A DNA stretch of 24,320 bases from Candidatus Woesearchaeota archaeon (GTDB lineage: Archaea > Nanobdellota > Nanobdellia > Woesearchaeales > SKGA01), in the NCBI GenBank assembly GCA_016926395.1, contig JAFGOT010000023.1, positions 1 to 24,320 of the forward strand, written 5' to 3'. The position numbers were made by a program, and so were the translations under genes. The notes under the pieces are model-generated. The model made no database searches. It was not told the DNA's origin and saw nothing but the letters and a program-made list of their open reading frames with translations. Positions 4,052 through 18,645 of the stretch are shown in pieces. Within the stretch, counting starts at the first letter, position 1, and each line of letters begins with the position of its first letter.

Positions 4052-6232
4052 TTGTCCGTGGGTATTGATATAGAACCGCCAATGCCTCCAAAAAGGTTGG
4101 CGCAACGTGATTTAGAAGTAGAGCAAAAAAAAGGCTCTGGATTCTTTTCATTATTTAAGAAAAAAAAGGCACCCGTTACTAATCCTGATTCTATTAACAA
4201 TTCCTCTGTTGAACTTAGAAAAAAACTTGGTTTAGATAGTTCTAATTCTTTATCAATTGAAAAATTACATGAGCAACTTCAACAAGAAGCTGATTCTTTT
4301 TCAGATACTGTGGCTAAACAATATGAAGAAGAACAAAAAAGTCATGAAGAATCTTCAGCATCTTCTTCAAGCATATCGGTTGCTCCTTCAAATCAAAGCA
4401 TGGTTCCTGATGACTTGTTGTCTTCTTCTCCTTCAAAACCATCTCCTATTCCTGAAACCAAAGATGAGTCTTCTCCTTTAGAACCTGAGCCATTATCTGA
4501 TGTTTCTGATGACGTTCCTCCTTCGCCTGTTTCATTAGATTCTGTTTCAACAAGTGTTGTTGATGATAATCAACCTATTCATGAAGAAGAAAATCTTGAT
4601 TTACAAAAAGAAATTGAGGCTGTTCCCGAATCTTCTGGCGAGAGTAGTTTAGTTCCTGATTTTTTATTGTCAGAACAAGATTCAGAATCAAATTCTTCTG
4701 TCAACAATTCAACTAAAAAAGAAAACTCAAAAGATAAAACTAAAAATGGTTCTAAAACTGTTAATTCGTGGACTGATGACGATGATACTGATGACTCCTT
4801 GGAAGGAGGAGAGTTTGCCAAAGAACCAGAACCTGTAATTAGCGAACCTTCGAATGTTGACGATTCTAATTTTCCTCAGCCAGTTTCTTTAGATGCTGAT
4901 TCTAAATCTGAAGAAAAAAAGTCTTCTAAAAAAGAATCTAAAAAAGCTGCAAAGAAAGTTTCTAAAGCAGTTAAGAAAGAAGAGAAAGTTTCAAAAAAAG
5001 CAGCTAAAAAATCTTCCAAAGAAACAAAAGAAAAAAGCAAGACTGTCAAAGAAGAAATTGTTGTTAAAGAAAACGAAGATGAAAAAAAATCTGATTTAAA
5101 GACTCCTGTTCCTTTAGATTCTAAAGTTCCAGATGATTTGATATCTGATCAAGACACTGGTGATGCTAATTCTCAATCCGATAGTTCTTGGTTAGAAGAA
5201 CCTTCTGAAAATTTAACTCCTAGTTCATCCAGTTCTTTTCTTGATGAGCCTGAGGTTGTTTTACCAGAACCTGTTCCTGTTCCTGAAAATCTTAGTTTTA
5301 ATTCTCCAAATGAAGATGTTTCATTAAATAAAGAAATAAATTTAGATATTGATAAGGCTGAAGCTTTTGCTAGAGAATTATCTTCTTCCACTGAATCAGT
5401 TGCTAAGGAGCATTCAATTGACGCTCCTGCAAGTCCTTTCGATTTAAATCCTGCTCCTAATTTATCAAAACAACCTGTCATAGATGATCTTGATGAACCA
5501 AGGTTAACTAGTTTTGAAGAACCAAAAAGAAGCAAAAAAGGATTTTTATCCAAATTGTTTGGGTCTAAACCTTCTGCTGATAAAGATATTCCTTCTGCTC
5601 CTTTACCAGATCCTGTCGCGCCAAATATTCATTTTGAAAATAATCTTTCTTCACCTCCTAACTCTTTAAATTTAGAAACGTCTGTTGAAATGAAGACTTC
5701 TTCAAACTCCGTCCTTCCTGTTTCTTCAGATTCAAATGATGCTCTACCTTTGAAAACGGACTTTGATGCTTCAACTCCTATTGAGGCAAATGATCCTTAT
5801 CAAGAAACTCCCGAAATTTTACGTAAACGAGCTTCCACCTTGAATTCTATTATTGAATCTGGAAAACTTGATGTTTTATTTGTAGATAAAAATGGTGCTA
5901 TAGCATCAAATGAAGATGAGTTAGTTGAGTCTAAATTAAATTCTGATGAACATGCTTTTGATCAAGATGCGGATAAAATTAAAAAACATCATCATTACAT
6001 TTCAAGTTTCGCTCATGACATTGACATAATAATAAATGCTGCAAAAGAAGCTGCATCAAGTGGTGATTTGCTTCTAGCTAAGAAAAAATATAATGAAGCT
6101 AAGGACCTTTATGCCGCAAGTGAGCTTGAAGATCACACTAGAGAGCTTCTTTATGTCACTCTTAAAGATTTATTTGATGATATTCACTTAAAACTGCTTG
6201 AAGCACAGGCTAAAGATTTAATTGGTGAATAA
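4052..6232 (+). CDS. Large acidic, intrinsically disordered protein with two amphipathic KKG(F)F..LF motifs, a Lys-rich block and a C-terminal helical domain
   Basis: 726-aa ORF with S/D/E/P-rich low complexity; TATA at 4002-4010 and an AGAGGGA SD-like site before the TTG/GTG start. Confidence 0.85.
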   Translation: MSVGIDIEPPMPPKRLAQRDLEVEQKKGSGFFSLFKKKKAPVTNPDSINNSSVELRKKLGLDSSNSLSIEKLHEQLQQEADSFSDTVAKQYEEEQKSHEESSASSSSISVAPSNQSMVPDDLLSSSPSKPSPIPETKDESSPLEPEPLSDVSDDVPPSPVSLDSVSTSVVDDNQPIHEEENLDLQKEIEAVPESSGESSLVPDFLLSEQDSESNSSVNNSTKKENSKDKTKNGSKTVNSWTDDDDTDDSLEGGEFAKEPEPVISEPSNVDDSNFPQPVSLDADSKSEEKKSSKKESKKAAKKVSKAVKKEEKVSKKAAKKSSKETKEKSKTVKEEIVVKENEDEKKSDLKTPVPLDSKVPDDLISDQDTGDANSQSDSSWLEEPSENLTPSSSSSFLDEPEVVLPEPVPVPENLSFNSPNEDVSLNKEINLDIDKAEAFARELSSSTESVAKEHSIDAPASPFDLNPAPNLSKQPVIDDLDEPRLTSFEEPKRSKKGFLSKLFGSKPSADKDIPSAPLPDPVAPNIHFENNLSSPPNSLNLETSVEMKTSSNSVLPVSSDSNDALPLKTDFDASTPIEANDPYQETPEILRKRASTLNSIIESGKLDVLFVDKNGAIASNEDELVESKLNSDEHAFDQDADKIKKHHHYISSFAHDIDIIINAAKEAASSGDLLLAKKKYNEAKDLYAASELEDHTRELLYVTLKDLFDDIHLKLLEAQAKDLIGE

Positions 6233-6264
6233 TTTTATATTCTACTTATCATTCTCTTATTCTG

Positions 6265-7383
6265 ATGACAGACCCTATTGTGCTTGATGGTAGCAAGTTT
6301 AGTGGTAGTGGAACGCTTCTTAGGTCTGCTTTGGCTTTCTCATCAATAACTTCTAAGTCTTTTGTTATTGAAAAAATTCTTATTGATAGAAAATTTCCAG
6401 GTCTTAGTGCTCAGAAAGTTGCTTTGATTGAATCATTTGCAAAAGCAACACAAGCAGACGTTGCTGGAAATGGTGTTGGTTCGACAATTTTACAATTTTC
6501 TCCAAAACTTCCTTTTTCGGGAAAAAAAGTCGATATTGATTTTTCTTCTCCAACTAGTGTTACTCTCCCTCTTCAATCTCTCCTTATTCCTTCTTTAATT
6601 TCGGAAGATTCAGTTTCTATTAATTTAACTGGTGGGACTCACGTTGCAAACGCACCAACTATTGGCTTCTTGCGAGAAACTTTATTTAGATATTTAACTC
6701 CTTATTTTGAAAACATTTCTTTAAACATTCCTCTAATGGGCTTTTATCCTAAGGGAGAGGGAACTGTTGTCTGTAACTTAACAAGCTCAATTTCTAAAGG
6801 TGATAAAGTAAGGCCTTTAGATGTTATTGAAAAAGATAATTTAATTGCGTTAAAAGGAGAATTAGTTTCTTCAGGTGAACATTTGGAATCGGATGCTTTG
6901 AAGACTATTAATTCGCTAGTCTCTTTGTCCTTGAAGAATTATGGTGTTCCTTTAATTCTTCAGCCGCAATATGTTGCTTCTAAAAGTAGCGGGGTTAGCA
7001 TGACTTTGGTTGCATTATTTGGAAACAAAGATGGTTATGATAATTCTTTACCTTTTATTATTGGTCTTGACAAAACTTGGTCTTCCTTATCAACAATAGA
7101 TAAATCTGACTTAGAGGATGATTGTTTATCTTTTGTTAAAGAATTTTCTGCTCTTATTTCAAAGAAATTTGTTGATATTCCTTCTGCTGAGTTGTTGCTC
7201 CCTTTTATTGCTGTTCTTGGAGGTTCAATCGTTGTTTCAGAAATTACTGAGAGAATGAATGCAATAATTTATGTTTCAAAAGAGATTTTAGATGTTGATT
7301 TTATTGTTGTTGACAATAAAATTTCTACTGTTGGTTATTTAAACACTCTTCATGAATCTTTACCTTCAATTGAGGATGTATAG
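6265..7383 (+). CDS. RNA 3'-terminal phosphate cyclase-like protein (RtcA fold), probably catalytically inactive
   Basis: LDGS...G.G.LLRSALA, PGL..Q, GGTHV...P and GFYPKG.G match RtcA, but the nucleophile motif reads EITERMNAI instead of EIT.HL.TN. Confidence 0.88.
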   Translation: MTDPIVLDGSKFSGSGTLLRSALAFSSITSKSFVIEKILIDRKFPGLSAQKVALIESFAKATQADVAGNGVGSTILQFSPKLPFSGKKVDIDFSSPTSVTLPLQSLLIPSLISEDSVSINLTGGTHVANAPTIGFLRETLFRYLTPYFENISLNIPLMGFYPKGEGTVVCNLTSSISKGDKVRPLDVIEKDNLIALKGELVSSGEHLESDALKTINSLVSLSLKNYGVPLILQPQYVASKSSGVSMTLVALFGNKDGYDNSLPFIIGLDKTWSSLSTIDKSDLEDDCLSFVKEFSALISKKFVDIPSAELLLPFIAVLGGSIVVSEITERMNAIIYVSKEILDVDFIVVDNKISTVGYLNTLHESLPSIEDV

Positions 7384-7475: not shown

Positions 7476-7763
7476 ATGGATTCATCAAGACCTTTAGATG
7501 CATTAAACAATTCCCGTGGAAAACGAGTGATTGTTGATTTGAAGAATGGTTGGAGATTTGTAGGAAAACTTCATGCTTTTGACATTCACATTAATACTGT
7601 GCTTGAAGAAGCGGAAGAGTACGAACCAAAAAATAAGACGGTAATAACTCAAGTTGATGAAAAAACATCCGAACAAGTTGTTTTAGGTGATAAAGAGCTT
7701 AAAAGAAAACTTGGCACTGTTTTTATTCGAGGAGATACCATCACAAATATTTCCGTACAATAG
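7476..7763 (+). CDS. Sm-like archaeal protein (SmAP/Lsm)
   Basis: RPLDAL, G.L.AFD.HIN.VL and VFIRGD motifs; SD AGGAGGT; followed by rpl37e, a conserved archaeal pairing. Confidence 0.95.
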   Translation: MDSSRPLDALNNSRGKRVIVDLKNGWRFVGKLHAFDIHINTVLEEAEEYEPKNKTVITQVDEKTSEQVVLGDKELKRKLGTVFIRGDTITNISVQ

Positions 7764-7777
7764 TAAGGTGAATTATA

Positions 7778-7945
7778 ATGGGTAAAGGCACTGCATCCTT
7801 TGGAAAACACTCTGGAAAAAAGACTCACATCGCATGTAGAAGATGCGGTAAAATTACTTATCACGCTTCAAAGAAAGTTTGCTCATCTTGTGGATTTGGA
7901 AAATCTTCAAAACTGCGAATTTTCTCCTGGCTTAAGAAAAAATAA
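7778..7945 (+). CDS. rpl37e: 50S ribosomal protein L37e
   Basis: Not in the ORF track. Translates as [55 protein letters not shown] (55 aa, C4 zinc finger); SD AAGGTGA upstream. Confidence 0.97.
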
Positions 7946-8079: not shown

Positions 8080-8721
8080 ATGGCAGGGATTTTCAAAAAA
8101 ATCGCAGAAAAATTATTCAAAAATTTTTTTAAAAAGCGAAAAGACATGAAGTTGGGGTTATACGGCCCTCCTAATGGTGGTAAAACCACTTTAGCAAATA
8201 GAATTTGCGAAGATTGGCTTAATGAAAAAGATGCTATGGGAACTGTTAGTAGCATTGCTCACGAGACTCGTGAAGTTCAGATAAAAAATAGCGTTGTTAT
8301 CGAATCCAAAAATGGTAAAAAATTAACTTTTAATCTTGTTGATACTCCTGGTATTGCAACAAAAATTGATTATGAAGATTTTATCAAAGAAGGAATGGAT
8401 GAAAAAGATGCTAAGGTTAGAGCTAAAGAAGCAACCAAAGGCGTTATTGATTCTATTAAATGGTTAGATGATATGGATGCTGTTGTTGTGGTTCTTGACG
8501 CTACAAAAGATCCCTATTCTCAAGTTAACATAACTATTGTTGGAAACCTTGAAGCAAGAAAAACTCCTGTTTTAGTTGTTGCTAATAAAATTGATCTGAA
8601 AAAAGCAGATATTAAAAAAATTCAAGCTGCCTTCCCTCAATACAAAGTTATTGGTATTAGTGCTATGAAAGGCCAGAACATCGAAGAGTTTTATGAAACT
8701 TTATTTGAGGTAGCTAGGTGA
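8080..8721 (+). CDS. oapA: Era-like small GTPase, OapA/ArvA family
   Basis: G1 GPPNGGKTT, G3 DTPG, G4 NKID, G5 ISA; followed by DUF2073-like and Zn-ribbon genes (oapABC/arvABC order). Confidence 0.88.
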   Translation: MAGIFKKIAEKLFKNFFKKRKDMKLGLYGPPNGGKTTLANRICEDWLNEKDAMGTVSSIAHETREVQIKNSVVIESKNGKKLTFNLVDTPGIATKIDYEDFIKEGMDEKDAKVRAKEATKGVIDSIKWLDDMDAVVVVLDATKDPYSQVNITIVGNLEARKTPVLVVANKIDLKKADIKKIQAAFPQYKVIGISAMKGQNIEEFYETLFEVAR

Positions 8722-9113
8722 GTATCATGGCAGGTGGATTGACTTTACAATTTATTCCTTATGGTGAGATAGAACATCTCGCTTCACAAAAAAGGGTTGA
8801 CAAATTATTGCGTCTTGTTAAGACTGACAAAATTATTCTTCTTGAAGGTAGACTTCGAAGTGAAGAAGAAGCAGAACTTATCCGACGTACTATGGAAGAG
8901 ATTAATGATAAATTTACAGGTATTGAACTATCTGTTGTATATCCTGAATCTAAAAATGTTGCATTTTTTGCAAGAGTAAAACAGTCTTTTATTAACTTGG
9001 TTCTTGGTGACAGACGAGGCATGACTATTATTGGTCCTGCTAATGTTGTTAGAGAAATTAAACAAGATCCTGATAAAATCCAACTATTTACAAAAGATGC
9101 GAGAAAAAGATAA
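8718..9113 (+). CDS. oapB: OapB/ArvB (DUF2073-like) protein
   Basis: IILLEGRL..EEEAELI..TM..I...F.GIE and G.T.IGPA motifs; GTGA start/stop overlap with oapA (alternative ATG at 8727). Confidence 0.82.
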   Translation: MSIMAGGLTLQFIPYGEIEHLASQKRVDKLLRLVKTDKIILLEGRLRSEEEAELIRRTMEEINDKFTGIELSVVYPESKNVAFFARVKQSFINLVLGDRRGMTIIGPANVVREIKQDPDKIQLFTKDARKR

Positions 9114-9165
9114 ATTATTTATCTTGTTTTTTTTTAATTTATATTTGTTTTAGGAGATAATTATT

Positions 9166-9552
9166 ATGCCTCATCAATGTGTATCATGCGGAACTTTTTT
9201 TGAAGACGGAGCTCACGAAATTTTAAGTGGTTGTTCTAATTGTGGTCATAAGTTATTTTTTTATGTAAAGAAAGAACGATTAGAAGAATTTAAGCGTGAT
9301 GAACCTCAGTTGTTTAATTTATCTGAAGAAGATAAACAACAAGTTGAAGAGGATGTCTATGATATTATTGGTGTTGATGCTGATAGAAGTAAACCTGTGA
9401 TTCTAGACATTGAAAGTGTTAAAATTCTTAAACCTGGAAAGTATGAACTTGATCTTGTGAATCTTTTCAAAAAGAAACAGCCCTTAATCTACAAATTAGA
9501 AGATGGTAAATACATGATTGATGTTATTGAGTCTTTTAAGAAAATGCGGTAG
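9166..9552 (+). CDS. oapC: OapC/ArvC Zn-ribbon protein
   Basis: MPHQCVSCG...GCSNCG zinc ribbon, then ESVKILKPGKYELDL..LF; SD AGGAGA. Confidence 0.87.
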   Translation: MPHQCVSCGTFFEDGAHEILSGCSNCGHKLFFYVKKERLEEFKRDEPQLFNLSEEDKQQVEEDVYDIIGVDADRSKPVILDIESVKILKPGKYELDLVNLFKKKQPLIYKLEDGKYMIDVIESFKKMR

Positions 9553-11213: not shown

Positions 11214-11259
11214 TGACAACAGCATCTTTTATATATTTAAACTTCTTATATGTGATTTG

Positions 11260-13743
11260 ATGGTTAAGAAAAAGACTGCTTCAAAGAAAACTGCTAATAA
11301 GTCCACTAAAAAAGAATCTAAGAAAAGCAGTAAAAAAGCCACAAAAAAAGTATCTACTCCTCCAATTGATAAACAAGTTAAAGTTTCAAAACCATCAAGT
11401 CGCCTTGATGAAGGCGGAGCAGGTTTTCCAAGAAAAAATTTTATCAAATTCACTGTCTTGGCCGTAATTGTTATTTTATTTTTGGTTTTATTGGTTTATG
11501 CTATTAATATAAATGTTAAATTGTTATTTGATACGGAGACTCACATTTCTCTTTCTCCAACAACTGCTTCTTATATTTCGACAAATCATGAACCCGTGCC
11601 TGTTAATTTTGATGTTGATGTTACTAAATTAGAAATTTGTGATATACTTTGTGAACACCAACTTATAGATAGTAGTCAGGGTGTTATTCTTAAGAACTTC
11701 TCAGAAAAAGCTTTGAATCATAAATCTTACTCTTATGACTTGGCAGTTCCAAAATATGGTTCTGGTCAAGTAATTTATAATTATAAAGTGCAATGTCGAA
11801 CTCTTGATAATAATATTTGTCCTTCTAAGAATAAAACTTATTCAAGTTCTGCATTCATAACTGTTGATTATTCTCTTTCAGATAATGAAATTCAAAAAAA
11901 AGAATCTCTTAAAACAAATCTTATAAAACTGACCACTGATATTGATTCTGCTAAAAAAAACATTTATGATTCAAATAATATTTTGTCATCTTTAAACTAT
12001 AGAGCTGGATTCCTCACTTCTGAAGAAAAATCTTTATCTAGTAAAAATAGCGGTCTTAGTTCTCTTCTAAAAGTTGTTGAATTAAATCTTCTTGATTTAT
12101 TTGATATGTGGAAATCTCAGAAATTTGCTTTGGCAAGTGAAGGTTATTTGTTGTTAAATGATAAATTAAGTTCTGTTGTTAAGGAATCATCTTTAACAGA
12201 AAGTTCTCTAATAACTATTCATAATACTTTTAACAATAATATTCTCTCATTAAAATCTTTACAAGATAATTCTTCTTATTATTCAAACATGGCTGGTTTT
12301 TTTAATTTGGTTGATAAAACGCAGTATGCTAAAATGAAAGATCTTGATGTGTCTTTTGATTCTGTCGTTTCACAGATAGAAAATAAATCCTTCTTGTCAT
12401 TTTCATCTGTCTCTTTTGATGTTTCTTCCATAACATTAAATCTTGAGTCTATCGAATCAAATTATAATTCAAAACTTGTTTTATTAGATGATAAAGCAAA
12501 TTCTTTATTTGATAAATATAATCGAACTTATTATTTTTTAACAGGTAGTTCTTTTGAAAAGAAATCAAATTCATGTAAAACAATTTCTTCTCTTATTAAT
12601 CAAATTGATGACTACAATTTAGGTGTTGATGTTTCCGATTTAAATGAATCTGAAATTGAGAATTCTATTATTTATTCTGAATTGTTGCTTGATAATATTT
12701 CGAACAACAATATTTCCTTAAATGATTATTTTGTATTCCCCAATTCTTATTTGCTGGATTATTATTCTAATTATTGCAATTGGACGCCAATTAGCGTTTT
12801 TGATAATTTATTTGTTGCACCAAACATTTCTTTTGTTGATAATTTTCAAAGCGAAGAAATTGTTATTCCTCCTTCTTTAGATCAATGTTGTTTTGGAGGA
12901 AATTGCAGTCCTTGTTGTCATGGTGATTCTTGTGATACTATTTATCCTATTATTCTAGTCCATGGTCATTCGTTTAGTAAGAGTACCAGTCCTGAACTAG
13001 CTTTTACTCGTCTTACTTATTTGCAAGACGCATTAGCTAAGGATGGTTATATTAATGGCGGAACTATTGGTCAAACTTCATCAATAGAAAATATTACTGC
13101 GGGAACTTGGGGAGAAACTCCTGCTCCTTTGGTTGTTGGTGTTACTTATTATTATTTGAATTATTATGACGTTGGTGGAGTAAACTTTGTTACTAGAAAA
13201 ACGGATAATATTGAGAATTACGCTTTAAGACTTAGAGAGGCTGTTGATTTAGTTAAAGAGAAAACAGGCAGGGATAAAGTTATTATTGTTGCACATTCAA
13301 TGGGTGGTCTTGTTGCTAGAGAGTATATTTCCTTATTTGGTGAATCTAACGTTGATAAATTAATTATTCTGGGAACTCCTGATTATGGTGTTGAGGGTGA
13401 TGTAAAAAAATATTGTACTGTTACTGGTGCAGAAGCCGAATGTACTGATATGTATGCAAACAGTATGTTTTTGACTCGACTGAATAATCCTAATAATTAT
13501 TTATCTCAAACCAAAACTTATACTATTGCTGCTCATGGTTGTGAAATGAAATCTGATTCTGCTAAAAAAGAGGATGGTGATGGTGTTGTTTTAGCTCGTA
13601 ATGTTCCCTTGCCTTTCGCTAAGAATTATAACATTACTGGAAATTGTACTGATTTCTTTGGAACTGATTTACATATGAATTTTGTTAATCCAAACTTATA
13701 TCCTCAAACGTATGATTTGATAAAACAGATGTTAGCAGATTAA
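11260..13743 (+). CDS. Membrane-anchored alpha/beta hydrolase (lipase/PGAP1-like) with Lys-rich N-tail, beta-rich domain, helical stalk and Cys-rich linker
   Basis: One transmembrane segment (FTVLAVIVILFLVLLVYAI); C-terminal VHGH oxyanion motif, AHSMGG nucleophile elbow (Ser at 13297-13299), DGDGVV and a terminal His (DLHMNF). Confidence 0.85.
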   Translation: MVKKKTASKKTANKSTKKESKKSSKKATKKVSTPPIDKQVKVSKPSSRLDEGGAGFPRKNFIKFTVLAVIVILFLVLLVYAININVKLLFDTETHISLSPTTASYISTNHEPVPVNFDVDVTKLEICDILCEHQLIDSSQGVILKNFSEKALNHKSYSYDLAVPKYGSGQVIYNYKVQCRTLDNNICPSKNKTYSSSAFITVDYSLSDNEIQKKESLKTNLIKLTTDIDSAKKNIYDSNNILSSLNYRAGFLTSEEKSLSSKNSGLSSLLKVVELNLLDLFDMWKSQKFALASEGYLLLNDKLSSVVKESSLTESSLITIHNTFNNNILSLKSLQDNSSYYSNMAGFFNLVDKTQYAKMKDLDVSFDSVVSQIENKSFLSFSSVSFDVSSITLNLESIESNYNSKLVLLDDKANSLFDKYNRTYYFLTGSSFEKKSNSCKTISSLINQIDDYNLGVDVSDLNESEIENSIIYSELLLDNISNNNISLNDYFVFPNSYLLDYYSNYCNWTPISVFDNLFVAPNISFVDNFQSEEIVIPPSLDQCCFGGNCSPCCHGDSCDTIYPIILVHGHSFSKSTSPELAFTRLTYLQDALAKDGYINGGTIGQTSSIENITAGTWGETPAPLVVGVTYYYLNYYDVGGVNFVTRKTDNIENYALRLREAVDLVKEKTGRDKVIIVAHSMGGLVAREYISLFGESNVDKLIILGTPDYGVEGDVKKYCTVTGAEAECTDMYANSMFLTRLNNPNNYLSQTKTYTIAAHGCEMKSDSAKKEDGDGVVLARNVPLPFAKNYNITGNCTDFFGTDLHMNFVNPNLYPQTYDLIKQMLAD

Positions 13744-13774: not shown

Positions 13775-14890
13775 ATGCAACTTGTTACTACCAAAAAAAT
13801 TCATAATAAACGACTTGCTAAAGGCTGTCGTCAGTGTGTTTATGGTAGAAAGTCAGTTCTTTTTATAACTAGTCGTTGTCATTATACTTGTTTTTATTGT
13901 CCTATTAGTGATGATAAAAGAGCTAAAGAAACCGTTAAAATCAATGAACACTTCATAAAAAAACCTGATTCTAAATCTGCAATAAATGAATTAATTAGAG
14001 AAATAGAATTATCTCAATCAAAGGGTGTAGGAATAACAGGGGGTGATCCTTTAGCCACTCCTGCTAGAACTTTAAAATATATTGAAGCATTAAAAAGTCA
14101 TTTTGGACGTCGGTTTCATATTCATCTTTACACTTCTCCTCAATTTGTGACTCGTGACAAATTAGAAAAATTAAGTTTATCTGGTCTTGATGAATTAAGA
14201 TTTCATCTAAATGTTGAGTCAGATGCTTTATGGGATCGAGTTAATCTTGCCAAGGGCTTAAAATTTAGTGTAGGTGTTGAAGTTCCTGCAGTTCCAACTC
14301 TTTTAGACGAATCAAAAAAACTTCTTGATTTTTGTAAAAAAAATTCTTTAATTAAATTTGTTAATTTAAATGAATTGGAGTATAGTGATGCTGGAATTCA
14401 AATTCTGGCCAAACGTGGTTTTTTTACAAAAGATTCTTTATCTTATGCTATTGCCCATAGTGAAGCTGCTGCAATAAAATTGGTTGAGTATGGTAAATCT
14501 ATTGGTCTTAGAGTTCATTATTGTTCTGCGCAGTTTAAAGATGCTGTTCAATTAGGAAATCGAATTCGTCTTAGAGCCCAGTCTGTTGTCAGACCTCACG
14601 AATTAGTTGATGAAGAAGGAATGATTATCCGTGGTGAAATCCATTCTAAAAAAAATAATATTTCTTCTCGTCAAATGTCTGCTTTTGGTGTTAAAGCAGA
14701 AAAACTATTTAATATTCCTCGTCAGTTCTTTGAAGTTCACGATAAAGTTTTGATGGTTAGACCTGATGTTTTAGAAGAAATATGGCCTTTGTTTGATCAG
14801 ATTTATCCAAAAAAAGAATTATCTGCGAGAATTGTTTCTGAATATCCAACTGATGATCATTTGCTTGTAGAGGTTCATCCTTTAAACTAA
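13775..14890 (+). CDS. Radical SAM protein (archaeal COG2108-like, substrate unknown)
   Basis: CHYTCFYC [4Fe-4S] motif, GITGGDP, extra GCRQC and HYC cysteines, LDELRFH. Confidence 0.9.
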   Translation: MQLVTTKKIHNKRLAKGCRQCVYGRKSVLFITSRCHYTCFYCPISDDKRAKETVKINEHFIKKPDSKSAINELIREIELSQSKGVGITGGDPLATPARTLKYIEALKSHFGRRFHIHLYTSPQFVTRDKLEKLSLSGLDELRFHLNVESDALWDRVNLAKGLKFSVGVEVPAVPTLLDESKKLLDFCKKNSLIKFVNLNELEYSDAGIQILAKRGFFTKDSLSYAIAHSEAAAIKLVEYGKSIGLRVHYCSAQFKDAVQLGNRIRLRAQSVVRPHELVDEEGMIIRGEIHSKKNNISSRQMSAFGVKAEKLFNIPRQFFEVHDKVLMVRPDVLEEIWPLFDQIYPKKELSARIVSEYPTDDHLLVEVHPLN

Positions 14891-15485: not shown

Positions 15486-15917
15486 ATGGGTTCGATTGAA
15501 TTTCTTCCACACACTGCAGATGAAAAATTTGTTGTGACCGCTGATTCTTTAGAAGATGCTTTTTCCACTGCTGTTTCTGCTTTTTTTGAGATTCTTCTTG
15601 GTAATTCTGTTTATGTTGAAAACAAGATAACTAAAGAAATTAATCTGAAGGCGAAAAAGCTTAGATCTCTTCTTTATGATTTTCTAAATGAACTTGTCTT
15701 TTATTTTGACAGTGAAGATTTGTTACTCCAAATTGTTAATAATCTTGTTATTGATAGGGAAAATGATGGTTCTTGGTCTTTATCTGCTAGTTTGAGCGGG
15801 GATTACCAATATGATTATTCTCTTAGAACTGAAATTAAAAATATGACTTATAGTGAAATGGCTATTTCAGAATCTGAAGAGGGCGTTTGGTCATTAACAG
15901 TTGTAGTAGATATATGA
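15486..15917 (+). CDS. Archease (RtcB cofactor)
   Basis: EFLPHTADEKF N-terminal metal-binding motif, LLYDFLNEL, and IK..TY..M...DI C-terminus. Confidence 0.93.
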   Translation: MGSIEFLPHTADEKFVVTADSLEDAFSTAVSAFFEILLGNSVYVENKITKEINLKAKKLRSLLYDFLNELVFYFDSEDLLLQIVNNLVIDRENDGSWSLSASLSGDYQYDYSLRTEIKNMTYSEMAISESEEGVWSLTVVVDI

Positions 15918-17217: not shown

Positions 17218-18645
17218 ATGGTTACTCCAACAAAAATTAATGATTACTTATATGAAATTGAAAAAAAAGATAATATGAATTCAAAAGTGAAAATCTTTGC
17301 TTCTGATCTTCTTATGAAACATCTAAATGAAGATAGATCTTTGCAACAAGGAATTAATGTTGCTTGTCTTCCTGGTATTTGTGGTCCCTCTATTATGATG
17401 CCTGATGCACATCAAGGCTATGGTTTTTCTATCGGCGGTGTTGCAGCATTTGATTTAGAAACAGGAATTATTTCTCCTGGTGGAGTTGGTTTTGATATTA
17501 ATTGTGGTGTTAGGCTTATTACTACTAATCTAAAAAAAGATGAAGTTCAGTTAAAGATAAATGAACTTCTCGATGGTTTATTTGATGCCATTCCTACAGG
17601 TAAAGGTTTTGAGAATAAATCTAGTTTATCTGATGAAGAATTAAATGATATTTTTTTAAATGGTCCAAAACACTTAGTTGATAGGGGGATTGGAACTCAA
17701 GACGATTTGAATCATTGTGAATCTGGAGGAGCTATGCCTGGGGCAGTTCCTGAATATGTAAGTCATCGAGCAAAAGCGCGTGGGAGAAAACAGCTTGGTA
17801 CTCTTGGTGCTGGAAATCATTTCCTTGAAATTCAAACTGTTGGAGAAATTTTTGATAAAGATATTGCTAAGATTTTTGGTTTTACTGATGTTGATCAAGT
17901 AGTTTTTATGATTCATTGTGGTAGTCGTGGTTTGGGACATCAAGTTGCAAGTGATTACTTGCGTTTAATGGAAGATGAGTATCCAAAAATTATTGAATCT
18001 CTTCCTGAAAAAGATTTGATTTATGCTCCTATTAATAGTGATCTTGGAAAAAAGTATTATGGCGCCATGTGTGCTGCTGCAAATTTTGCTTGGGCTAATC
18101 GTCATATGATTGGACATTTAGCAAAAGAAGTTTTCAAAAAATTATTTCCTGCTGTGCAATTTAGAACTGTTTATGATGTCGCTCATAACATTGCTAAAAG
18201 AGAAACACACATTATTGGTGGTGTAGAAAAAGAAGTCATGGTTCATAGAAAAGGGGCAACAAGAGCGTTTGGCCCTGGAAACAGCGACCTGCCTGCGGAC
18301 TATCAAACTACTGGACAGCCTATTTTGATTCCTGGTTCTATGGGTACTTCTTCTTTTGTTCTTGTTGGAACTAAAGAAGGAATGGAAGCTTCTTTTGGAA
18401 GTACTGCTCATGGTGCTGGACGTCTTATGAGTCGATTTGATGCAAAAAAAGAATTTGATGGCGAGACTATTCGTGATACTTTAGCAGAACAAAATATCTC
18501 CTTAAAAGCTCGAAATATCAGGGGCGTTGGTGATGAGGCTCCTGGAGCATATAAGGATGTTGATGAGGTTGTTAAAGTTAGTCATGAAGCACACATCGGC
18601 AATTTGGTTGTTAAGCTAAAGCCTATTGGAGTAATAAAAGGATAA
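17218..18645 (+). CDS. rtcB: RNA-splicing/repair ligase RtcB
   Basis: MPDAHQGYGF, GFDINCG, GNHFLE, HCGSRG, HNIA, HRKGAT and STAHGAGR catalytic motifs all intact. Confidence 0.98.
   Translation: MVTPTKINDYLYEIEKKDNMNSKVKIFASDLLMKHLNEDRSLQQGINVACLPGICGPSIMMPDAHQGYGFSIGGVAAFDLETGIISPGGVGFDINCGVRLITTNLKKDEVQLKINELLDGLFDAIPTGKGFENKSSLSDEELNDIFLNGPKHLVDRGIGTQDDLNHCESGGAMPGAVPEYVSHRAKARGRKQLGTLGAGNHFLEIQTVGEIFDKDIAKIFGFTDVDQVVFMIHCGSRGLGHQVASDYLRLMEDEYPKIIESLPEKDLIYAPINSDLGKKYYGAMCAAANFAWANRHMIGHLAKEVFKKLFPAVQFRTVYDVAHNIAKRETHIIGGVEKEVMVHRKGATRAFGPGNSDLPADYQTTGQPILIPGSMGTSSFVLVGTKEGMEASFGSTAHGAGRLMSRFDAKKEFDGETIRDTLAEQNISLKARNIRGVGDEAPGAYKDVDEVVKVSHEAHIGNLVVKLKPIGVIKG

Follow-up and report, generated by a model that had tools for sequence, protein, structure and literature searches.

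The open reading frame (ORF) at positions 6265–7383 of the DNA described here encodes a protein that has the fold of RtcA, the RNA 3′-terminal phosphate cyclase, and lacks the residues on which RtcA catalysis depends. The DNA is a stretch of 24,320 bp, here called the window, from the genome of a Candidatus Woesearchaeota archaeon (assembly GCA_016926395.1, contig JAFGOT010000023.1, positions 1–24,320); unless stated otherwise, all features discussed lie on its plus strand. The explanation that we regard as rather likely is that this protein, termed the pseudo-cyclase below, is a cyclase-dead descendant of the local RtcA that has been kept by selection, has acquired a new loop and a new C-terminal tail, and probably serves in a non-catalytic binding role. 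The proposed course of events is as follows. The catalytic residues and most of the RNA contacts would have been lost, leaving the corresponding alignment columns to drift freely among relatives. The loss would have been a single event on the stem lineage of one Woesearchaeota family. Purifying selection would have retained the protein since then, at an evolutionary rate several times that of its neighbours. Selection would now be holding the new surface loop and an acidic-hydrophobic tail, the new role having been taken on before the active site decayed. Most likely the protein would act as an adaptor or scaffold that binds without catalysis, as Rcl1 does for Bms1, and the best candidate partner would be the co-inherited protein encoded directly upstream, which is predicted to carry a three-helix bundle.

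The ORF is intact and specifies 372 residues plus the stop codon. Its product matches the Pfam RTC family (PF01137) with an E value of 3.2e-42 and 144.6 bits, against a cut-off of 27. It stays below the cut-offs of two models for RtcA proper, namely the NCBIfam equivalog TIGR03399 (146.1 bits, cut-off 250.05) and NF003246 (132.5 bits, cut-off 352). An AlphaFold2 model, built from an alignment of 145 relatives, has a mean predicted local distance difference test (pLDDT) score of 95.6. With this model as query, Foldseek finds the RtcA of P. horikoshii (4o89) at an E value of 7e-34, and a VIA comparison with the same structure gives a Z score of 40.2 and a root-mean-square deviation (rmsd) of 1.9 Å over 334 of 341 residues, with 28% identity. 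The predicted fold is fully that of RtcA, with all four domains retained, i.e., the three repeats and the inserted domain.

The active site was examined by mapping residues through phmmer alignments to the RtcAs of P. horikoshii (4o89) and E. coli (3tut/1qmh), together with a profile alignment. After duplicates were removed, 32 sequences of the degenerate clade to which the pseudo-cyclase belongs (see below) were compared with 139 canonical sequences. In E. coli RtcA, Glu14 is a metal-binding residue, and Pro131 and Phe135 belong to the adenine pocket. The EGGGQ motif has become S13-G-S-G-T17 (6301–6315), so that Glu14 and Gln18 of the E. coli enzyme are replaced by Ser13 and Thr17. The motif IR..R..PGL.PQH reads IL..R..PGLSAQK (6376–6417), and its columns vary within the clade. 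Here Arg40 of E. coli is replaced by Leu39 and His52 by Lys51 (6415–6417), while Arg43 and Gln51 are retained as Arg42 and Gln50. GGTH stands in place of GGTD (6631–6642). The D-Q pair that holds the ribose of adenosine monophosphate (Asp286 in P. horikoshii; PMC4174438) is replaced by E309-L310 (7189–7194). Finally, at the site of the adenylylated His (E. coli His309, P. horikoshii His307), the motif T-N-H reads T-E-R330, Arg330 being specified by an AGA codon at 7252–7254.

An earlier note on this DNA, made from the sequence alone, had listed these motif substitutions other than GGTH, among them the change of His to Arg at 7252–7254, and had taken the catalytic set to be lost. The alignments to RtcAs of solved structure place every one of them, and the His nucleophile, the metal-binding Glu, and the ATP/phosphate-binding Arg40 and His52 are indeed all replaced. 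Among the features of RtcA that persist are the equivalent of Arg21, the PGL turn, GGT, the YPKG stretch, and the GG that precedes the former nucleophile helix. In P. horikoshii RtcA, the substitutions R17A, R36A, R39A, and H307A each yield an inactive enzyme (PMC4174438). The pseudo-cyclase can most likely neither adenylylate itself nor cyclise RNA 3′-phosphate ends, to judge from its residues at these positions.

About 32 distinct degenerate sequences form a single clade, which consists of a family-level Woesearchaeota group (f1, with genera g1 and g2) and its metagenome kin. In the canonical enzymes, His309, Arg21, Arg40, and Arg43 are each found in 139 of 139 sequences, and Gln51 and His52 in 135 of 139. 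The clade presents a very different picture at the His309 column: Arg in 11 sequences, Glu in 7, His in 4, Gln in 3, Thr and Lys in 2 each, and Tyr, Asp, or Asn in the others. The scatter is comparable at the Glu14, Gln18, Arg40, Arg43, Gln51, and His52 columns. Because canonical relatives keep these residues near-invariantly, the active-site loss is far from a chance variation.

The loss of the His leaves room for the proposal that the protein is still an active cyclase, or a nucleotidyl transferase, that employs another nucleophile, such as His126 of the GGTH motif or Lys51. His126 is indeed present in 26 of the 32 clade members, the pocket residues Pro131 and Phe135 remain, and the residue at 309 is still acidic. 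However, 9 of the 139 canonical enzymes combine a His at the GGTD site with His309. A His there is thus a normal variant, and His126 was rejected as a substitute nucleophile. Lys51 is present in just 12 of 32 clade members, and no further His or Lys is invariant in the clade. Moreover, the equivalents of the metal-binding Glu, Arg40, and Arg43 are needed for adenylylation by the P. horikoshii and human enzymes (PMC4174438), whereas the first two are lost here and the Arg43 column is variable across the clade. We consider a substitute nucleophile to be very improbable.

The degeneration probably has a single origin, on the stem lineage of one Woesearchaeota family. Of 40 relatives, those in f1 that yielded an alignable copy of the gene all have the degenerate form, and the aligned sequences from other families of the same order are without exception canonical, with the motifs EGGGQ, IR.GR..PGLK.QH, GGTD, and T.H..TN. 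A protein search of 1.84 billion representatives returned 2683 matches; the best 150 of these comprise the degenerate sequences, which rank first, and otherwise only canonical ones. In an IQ-TREE analysis (LG+C20), run as a quick search on degenerate and canonical RtcA sequences, 35 degenerate rows are grouped together by a branch whose SH-aLRT support is 100. A sample of 301 genomes across the phylum gives RTC matches in 195, including two unpublished genomes (G258 and G259) that are both canonical and that underlie no other result here. Canonical proteins score about 230–276 bits in this sample, and low scores come from f1 only. Three further low scorers were set aside: in G093 and G131 the match is to a canonical gene cut off by the end of the contig, and in G204 it is a spurious one of 16 bits. 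No second degenerate lineage is seen in the 301 genomes.

No second rtcA was found. The earlier note had suggested looking for a second, intact rtcA, and a profile search of the source genome (G000; 1.02 Mb, 82.5% complete) finds a single RTC match. Likewise, 15 other f1 genomes, 87–100% complete, have one locus per genome, the second RTC matches in G002 and G016 being fragments. The pseudo-cyclase protein, used as a query for related loci in genome contigs, gave no match; RtcB from the window, used in the same way, gave one named relative, a Candidatus Woesearchaeota archaeon. A literature search for an archaeal Rcl1-like protein or RtcA pseudoenzyme found nothing relevant.

Members of the clade have also gained features. 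A loop in the inserted domain, G253-N-K-D-G-Y-D259-N260-S (7021–7047), is clade-specific: of the 32 clade members, 31 show the pattern G-x3-4-[GNS]-[FY]-D-[NTY], which none of the 139 canonical sequences has. The second gain is a C-terminal extension, residues 356–372 (7330–7380), that ends in the tail L-P-S-I-E-D-V (7360–7380). All but 3 of the 32 clade members (29) end in the tail pattern [ILVM][DEN][DEA][LIV]-COOH, as against 1 of 139 canonical enzymes.

Two transitional forms, both known from metagenomes, bear on the order of events. P0017 has H-S-G-S-G-C in place of EGGGQ, the new type of loop, and a long C-terminal extension, and it retains Arg40, Arg43, Gln51, His52, GGTD, and His309. 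P0008 has GGTH and the full loop and tail; it has lost His52 and kept Arg40, Arg43, Gln51, and His309. The SGSG form of the EGGGQ motif is present in both. In the clade crown, the remaining active-site residues are lost as well. Since P0017 and P0008 carry the gains while His309, Arg40, and Arg43 remain, the gains preceded the loss of the nucleophile. The series, few as its members are, fits a history in which the job changed first and the disused site decayed later.

The gene could instead be a functionless relic in slow decay that happens to be unbroken. The earlier note had held that it does not look like a decaying pseudogene and had proposed the ratio of non-synonymous to synonymous substitution rates (dN/dS) as a check, a ratio near 1 being the sign of decay. 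The ratio was estimated by NG86 with three metagenome relatives for which DNA is at hand, 77, 66, and 65% identical to the pseudo-cyclase. The values are 0.16–0.30, with bootstrap limits of 0.12–0.33; the proximity of dS to 1 tells against them in that it makes the ratios rough, though they are clearly below 1. At the same loci, dN/dS is 0.03–0.10 for the GTPase, OapB, and OapC genes and 0.04–0.20 for the Sm gene. The selection that acts on the pseudo-cyclase gene is thus purifying, though relaxed.

The pace of change speaks for a relic. The dN/dS rate is 3–6 times that of most neighbours. The mean identity of pseudo-cyclases within one genus is 31.5%, compared with 48% between families for canonical RtcA, and in the same genomes identity is 71–86% for Sm and the GTPase, which are encoded nearby, and 68–75% for RtcB. 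In G011, with a genome of 0.7 Mb, the copy is hyper-diverged, nearly unrecognisable, and only 309 residues long. It was missed by the protein search and the Pfam RTC search, so that the genome first looked gene-free, and was found at the same site by hmmsearch with a clade profile (E 1e-19). No copy was found in G010, the contig of which ends at the GTPase gene, just short of the expected site. Against decay stand the unbroken ORFs in more than 30 distinct lineages that have diverged to 20–35% identity, including the most diverged (G006 and G011), along with the upper bound of 0.33 on dN/dS, the confidently predicted fold, and new motifs that are conserved throughout the clade. A relic is quite improbable on this evidence, and the earlier note's judgement that the gene is not decaying holds up.

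If the pseudo-cyclase is retained for a purpose, one candidate is that of a non-catalytic factor for RNA-end binding or RNA processing, which would grip 3′-phosphate ends and act with the Sm protein or in the RtcB/archease pathway. The earlier note had inclined to such an RNA-binding or processing factor, partly because of the company the gene keeps in the window. Immediately downstream are genes for an Sm protein (7476–7763; Pfam LSM) and ribosomal protein L37e (7778–7945; Pfam Ribosomal_L37e), and further on lie those for archease (15486–15917; Pfam Archease) and the RtcB ligase (17218–18645; Pfam RtcB, E 4e-163). The protein itself still has Gly16, Gln50, the basic Lys51, and Tyr161 and Pro162 of the YPKG stretch.

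The context argument weakens on comparison. The Sm-L37e pair adjoins the pseudo-cyclase gene in genus g1 only and is absent from this position in genus g2 and in the sister families. Archease and RtcB are 8–10 kb downstream, beyond unrelated genes. RtcB lies 6–7 kb from the pseudo-cyclase gene in three of five relatives checked and on another contig in G005. In G008, a 97% complete genome of the same genus, no RtcB match is seen at E ≤ 1e-30; the gene may be split, missed, or truly absent there, while four other genomes of that genus have RtcB at 68–75% identity. The binding surface fares no better. In the RtcA-RNA structure from P. horikoshii, the RNA and its 3′-phosphate are contacted by Arg17, Arg36, Arg45, His48, the backbone of a TAGS stretch, and Trp125 (PMC4174438). 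With the exception of Arg17, all of these contacts have been lost or vary among clade members. The lone phosphate-binding Arg that is kept clade-wide (25 of 32) is Arg20 (6322–6324), which corresponds to Arg21 of E. coli and Arg17 of P. horikoshii. As the old RNA cleft is largely gone, an RNA-end-binding role is possible, but it is not supported, and we hold this explanation to be unlikely.

The preferred reading, a selected and cyclase-dead binding protein, calls for a partner, and the gene directly upstream (4052–6232) is the best candidate. It encodes a 726-residue low-complexity protein that is rich in Ser, Asp, Glu, and Lys and in which the KKGF..LF amphipathic motif occurs twice, near 4127 and near 5534. 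The protein was characterised by synteny, alignment, and AlphaFold2 modelling. Its last 75–80 residues are conserved (alignment A2) and are predicted to form a C-terminal three-helix bundle (about 5990–6229) with pLDDT above 90. Across the order, proteins of this family range from 450 to 1400 residues and share an N-terminal basic-amphipathic motif of the same type and the same C-terminal domain. In at least 11 of 14 f1 loci checked, drawn from g1 and g2, the bundle-domain gene is directly upstream of the pseudo-cyclase gene and co-directional with it. An exception is G012, where the bundle domain is about 18 kb away. In G011, where the pseudo-cyclase itself is reduced to 309 residues, the upstream protein has shrunk to 151 residues and is still beside it (L066, C21, 4615–6027). 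In four sister families (G022, G038, G024, and G036), the bundle-domain gene adjoins canonical RtcA in convergent orientation.

No Pfam family matches the upstream protein. Its bundle likewise has no match in Pfam, MIT included, or among sequences in the Protein Data Bank (PDB), and comparison with a protein atlas assigned it to no family, the score of 0.80 being at noise level. By structure, the best Foldseek matches are to the MIT domain of Vps4 (4niq and 2v6x), with template modelling (TM) scores of 0.65–0.75, rmsd of 2.2–2.6 Å, and E values of 0.2–0.3, a level that tells against the match because any three-helix bundle could attain it. MIT domains bind short C-terminal peptides, as the Vps4 MIT domain does with ESCRT-III tails. 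The tail of the pseudo-cyclase does not fit the known MIM patterns. Nonetheless, because MIT domains bind C-terminal peptides and because Rcl1 acts through Bms1, a pairing of tail with bundle is an attractive guess. We tentatively suggest, as an unlikely refinement, that the dead cyclase and the long, disordered upstream protein with its MinD-like amphipathic motifs form a dedicated pair, in which the tail, the loop, or both would dock on the MIT-like bundle and the former enzyme would serve a membrane-associated system of DPANN archaea as an adaptor. Such a pair would be an independent archaeal counterpart of Rcl1-Bms1, that is, an RNA-repair enzyme turned adaptor in which the binding motifs came before active-site decay.

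In addition to the rough dN/dS ratios and the modest MIT match, several points weigh against the interpretation as a whole. The degenerate sequences are long branches and might attract each other in a quick tree; one origin is still favoured, for which the indels and the taxon that they have in common are evidence independent of the tree. Four clade members (P0008, P0009, P0016, and P0017) retain His at the nucleophile site, and two of them also have Arg40 and Arg43, so early-branching members of the clade might be active. Outside f1, the bundle-domain and RtcA-type genes do not strictly co-occur. Lastly, the C-terminal tail of the pseudo-cyclase has a pLDDT of about 90 in the model, and it may pack on its own protein rather than dock on a partner.

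The remaining features of the window are as follows. A TATA-like box, TTTTATATT, is at 6233–6241, about 26 nt ahead of the ATG of the pseudo-cyclase gene, to which the earlier note had ascribed a TATA of its own. The run and its spacing fit an archaeal TATA box and a probably leaderless mRNA, a promoter role that would follow from the usual spacing of archaeal promoters. Directly after the Sm-L37e pair, positions 8080–9552 (plus strand) encode a small GTPase, then OapB and OapC. This block is 89–97% identical in close relatives, with the low dN/dS of 0.03–0.10 given above. A replication origin may lie near it, since the highly conserved OapB/OapC block belongs to origin-associated families. 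Between the Oap block and archease are genes for an 828-residue protein with a C-terminal α/β-hydrolase (lipase-like) domain (11257–13743, plus strand) and for a radical SAM protein (13775–14890, plus strand). At the left end, on the minus strand (312–2416), genes for SBDS, a proteasome α subunit, and the RNase P protein Pop5 are in a row. Such a row is the usual archaeal exosome/proteasome superoperon, and in G011 and G012 it runs on into exosome-like genes.

What is new here is probably a whole Woesearchaeota family with a cyclase-dead derivative of RtcA, newly conserved surface features, and a binding role. Reuse of the RtcA fold without catalysis would then have happened separately in archaea, down to the change of the nucleophilic His to Arg seen here. 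Living transitional forms suggest an order in which the loop and tail came first, the metal and phosphate ligands were lost next, and the His went last. Given such forms, a few recombinant proteins would be enough to test directly how a pseudoenzyme arises. There is also a practical side. The scores of the clade genes exceed the Pfam RTC threshold, and the label "RNA 3′-terminal phosphate cyclase" is likely to be attached to them; a metabolic reconstruction of these Woesearchaeota would then include a step of RNA repair that is probably missing.

Three known systems invite comparison. RtcA (PF01137; TIGR03399) is clearly the parent family, 26–28% identical and of the same fold along the whole length. 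Relative to RtcA, the pseudo-cyclase has lost most RNA contacts along with Arg40, His52, the metal-binding Glu, and the His that is adenylylated. A conserved loop and a C-terminal tail are added, and the protein evolves much faster than the canonical RtcA of sister families. The MIT/MIM pairs offer a looser likeness, namely a three-helix bundle encoded upstream and a conserved C-terminal peptide on the pseudo-cyclase.

Rcl1 (TIGR03400; 3pqv and 4clq) is a parallel case. To our knowledge, it is the textbook case of non-catalytic reuse of the RtcA fold and is confined to eukaryotes. It likewise has the RtcA fold, lacks the cyclase residues, and has a non-catalytic role. In yeast Rcl1, H309 has become R321, the same change as Arg330 here, and Rcl1 works through Bms1, a Phe of which enters the old adenylate pocket (PMC4150785). 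A search for the C-terminal domain of Bms1 (PF04950) gave no match in the source genome, though control genomes gave none either. One might ask, then, whether the pseudo-cyclase is an archaeal orthologue or ancestor of Rcl1. The shared His-to-Arg change and the shared fold (Z score of 33 in VIA comparisons of the model with Rcl1 structures) would favour this, as would a short C-terminal extension in Rcl1 that aligns with model residues 360–363. Yet by every score the protein is nearer to RtcA. Identity to the Rcl1 structures is 18%, and the Z score of 33 compares with 40 for RtcA; the Rcl1 model TIGR03400 gives 44 bits, short of its cut-off of 227.95 and well below the 146 bits of the RtcA model; and sequence searches yield E values of 1.9e-23 for RtcA and 1e-3 for Rcl1. 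In addition, the clade is limited to one Woesearchaeota family whose sister families are canonical, transitional forms exist, and Arg occupies the His site in only 11 of 32 members and is not fixed. Descent in common with Rcl1 is extremely improbable, and the independence from Rcl1 that the earlier note had proposed is supported. The resemblance to Rcl1 is one of kind and not of descent: the two have separate origins, and the active-site columns of the pseudo-cyclase drift instead of being fixed.

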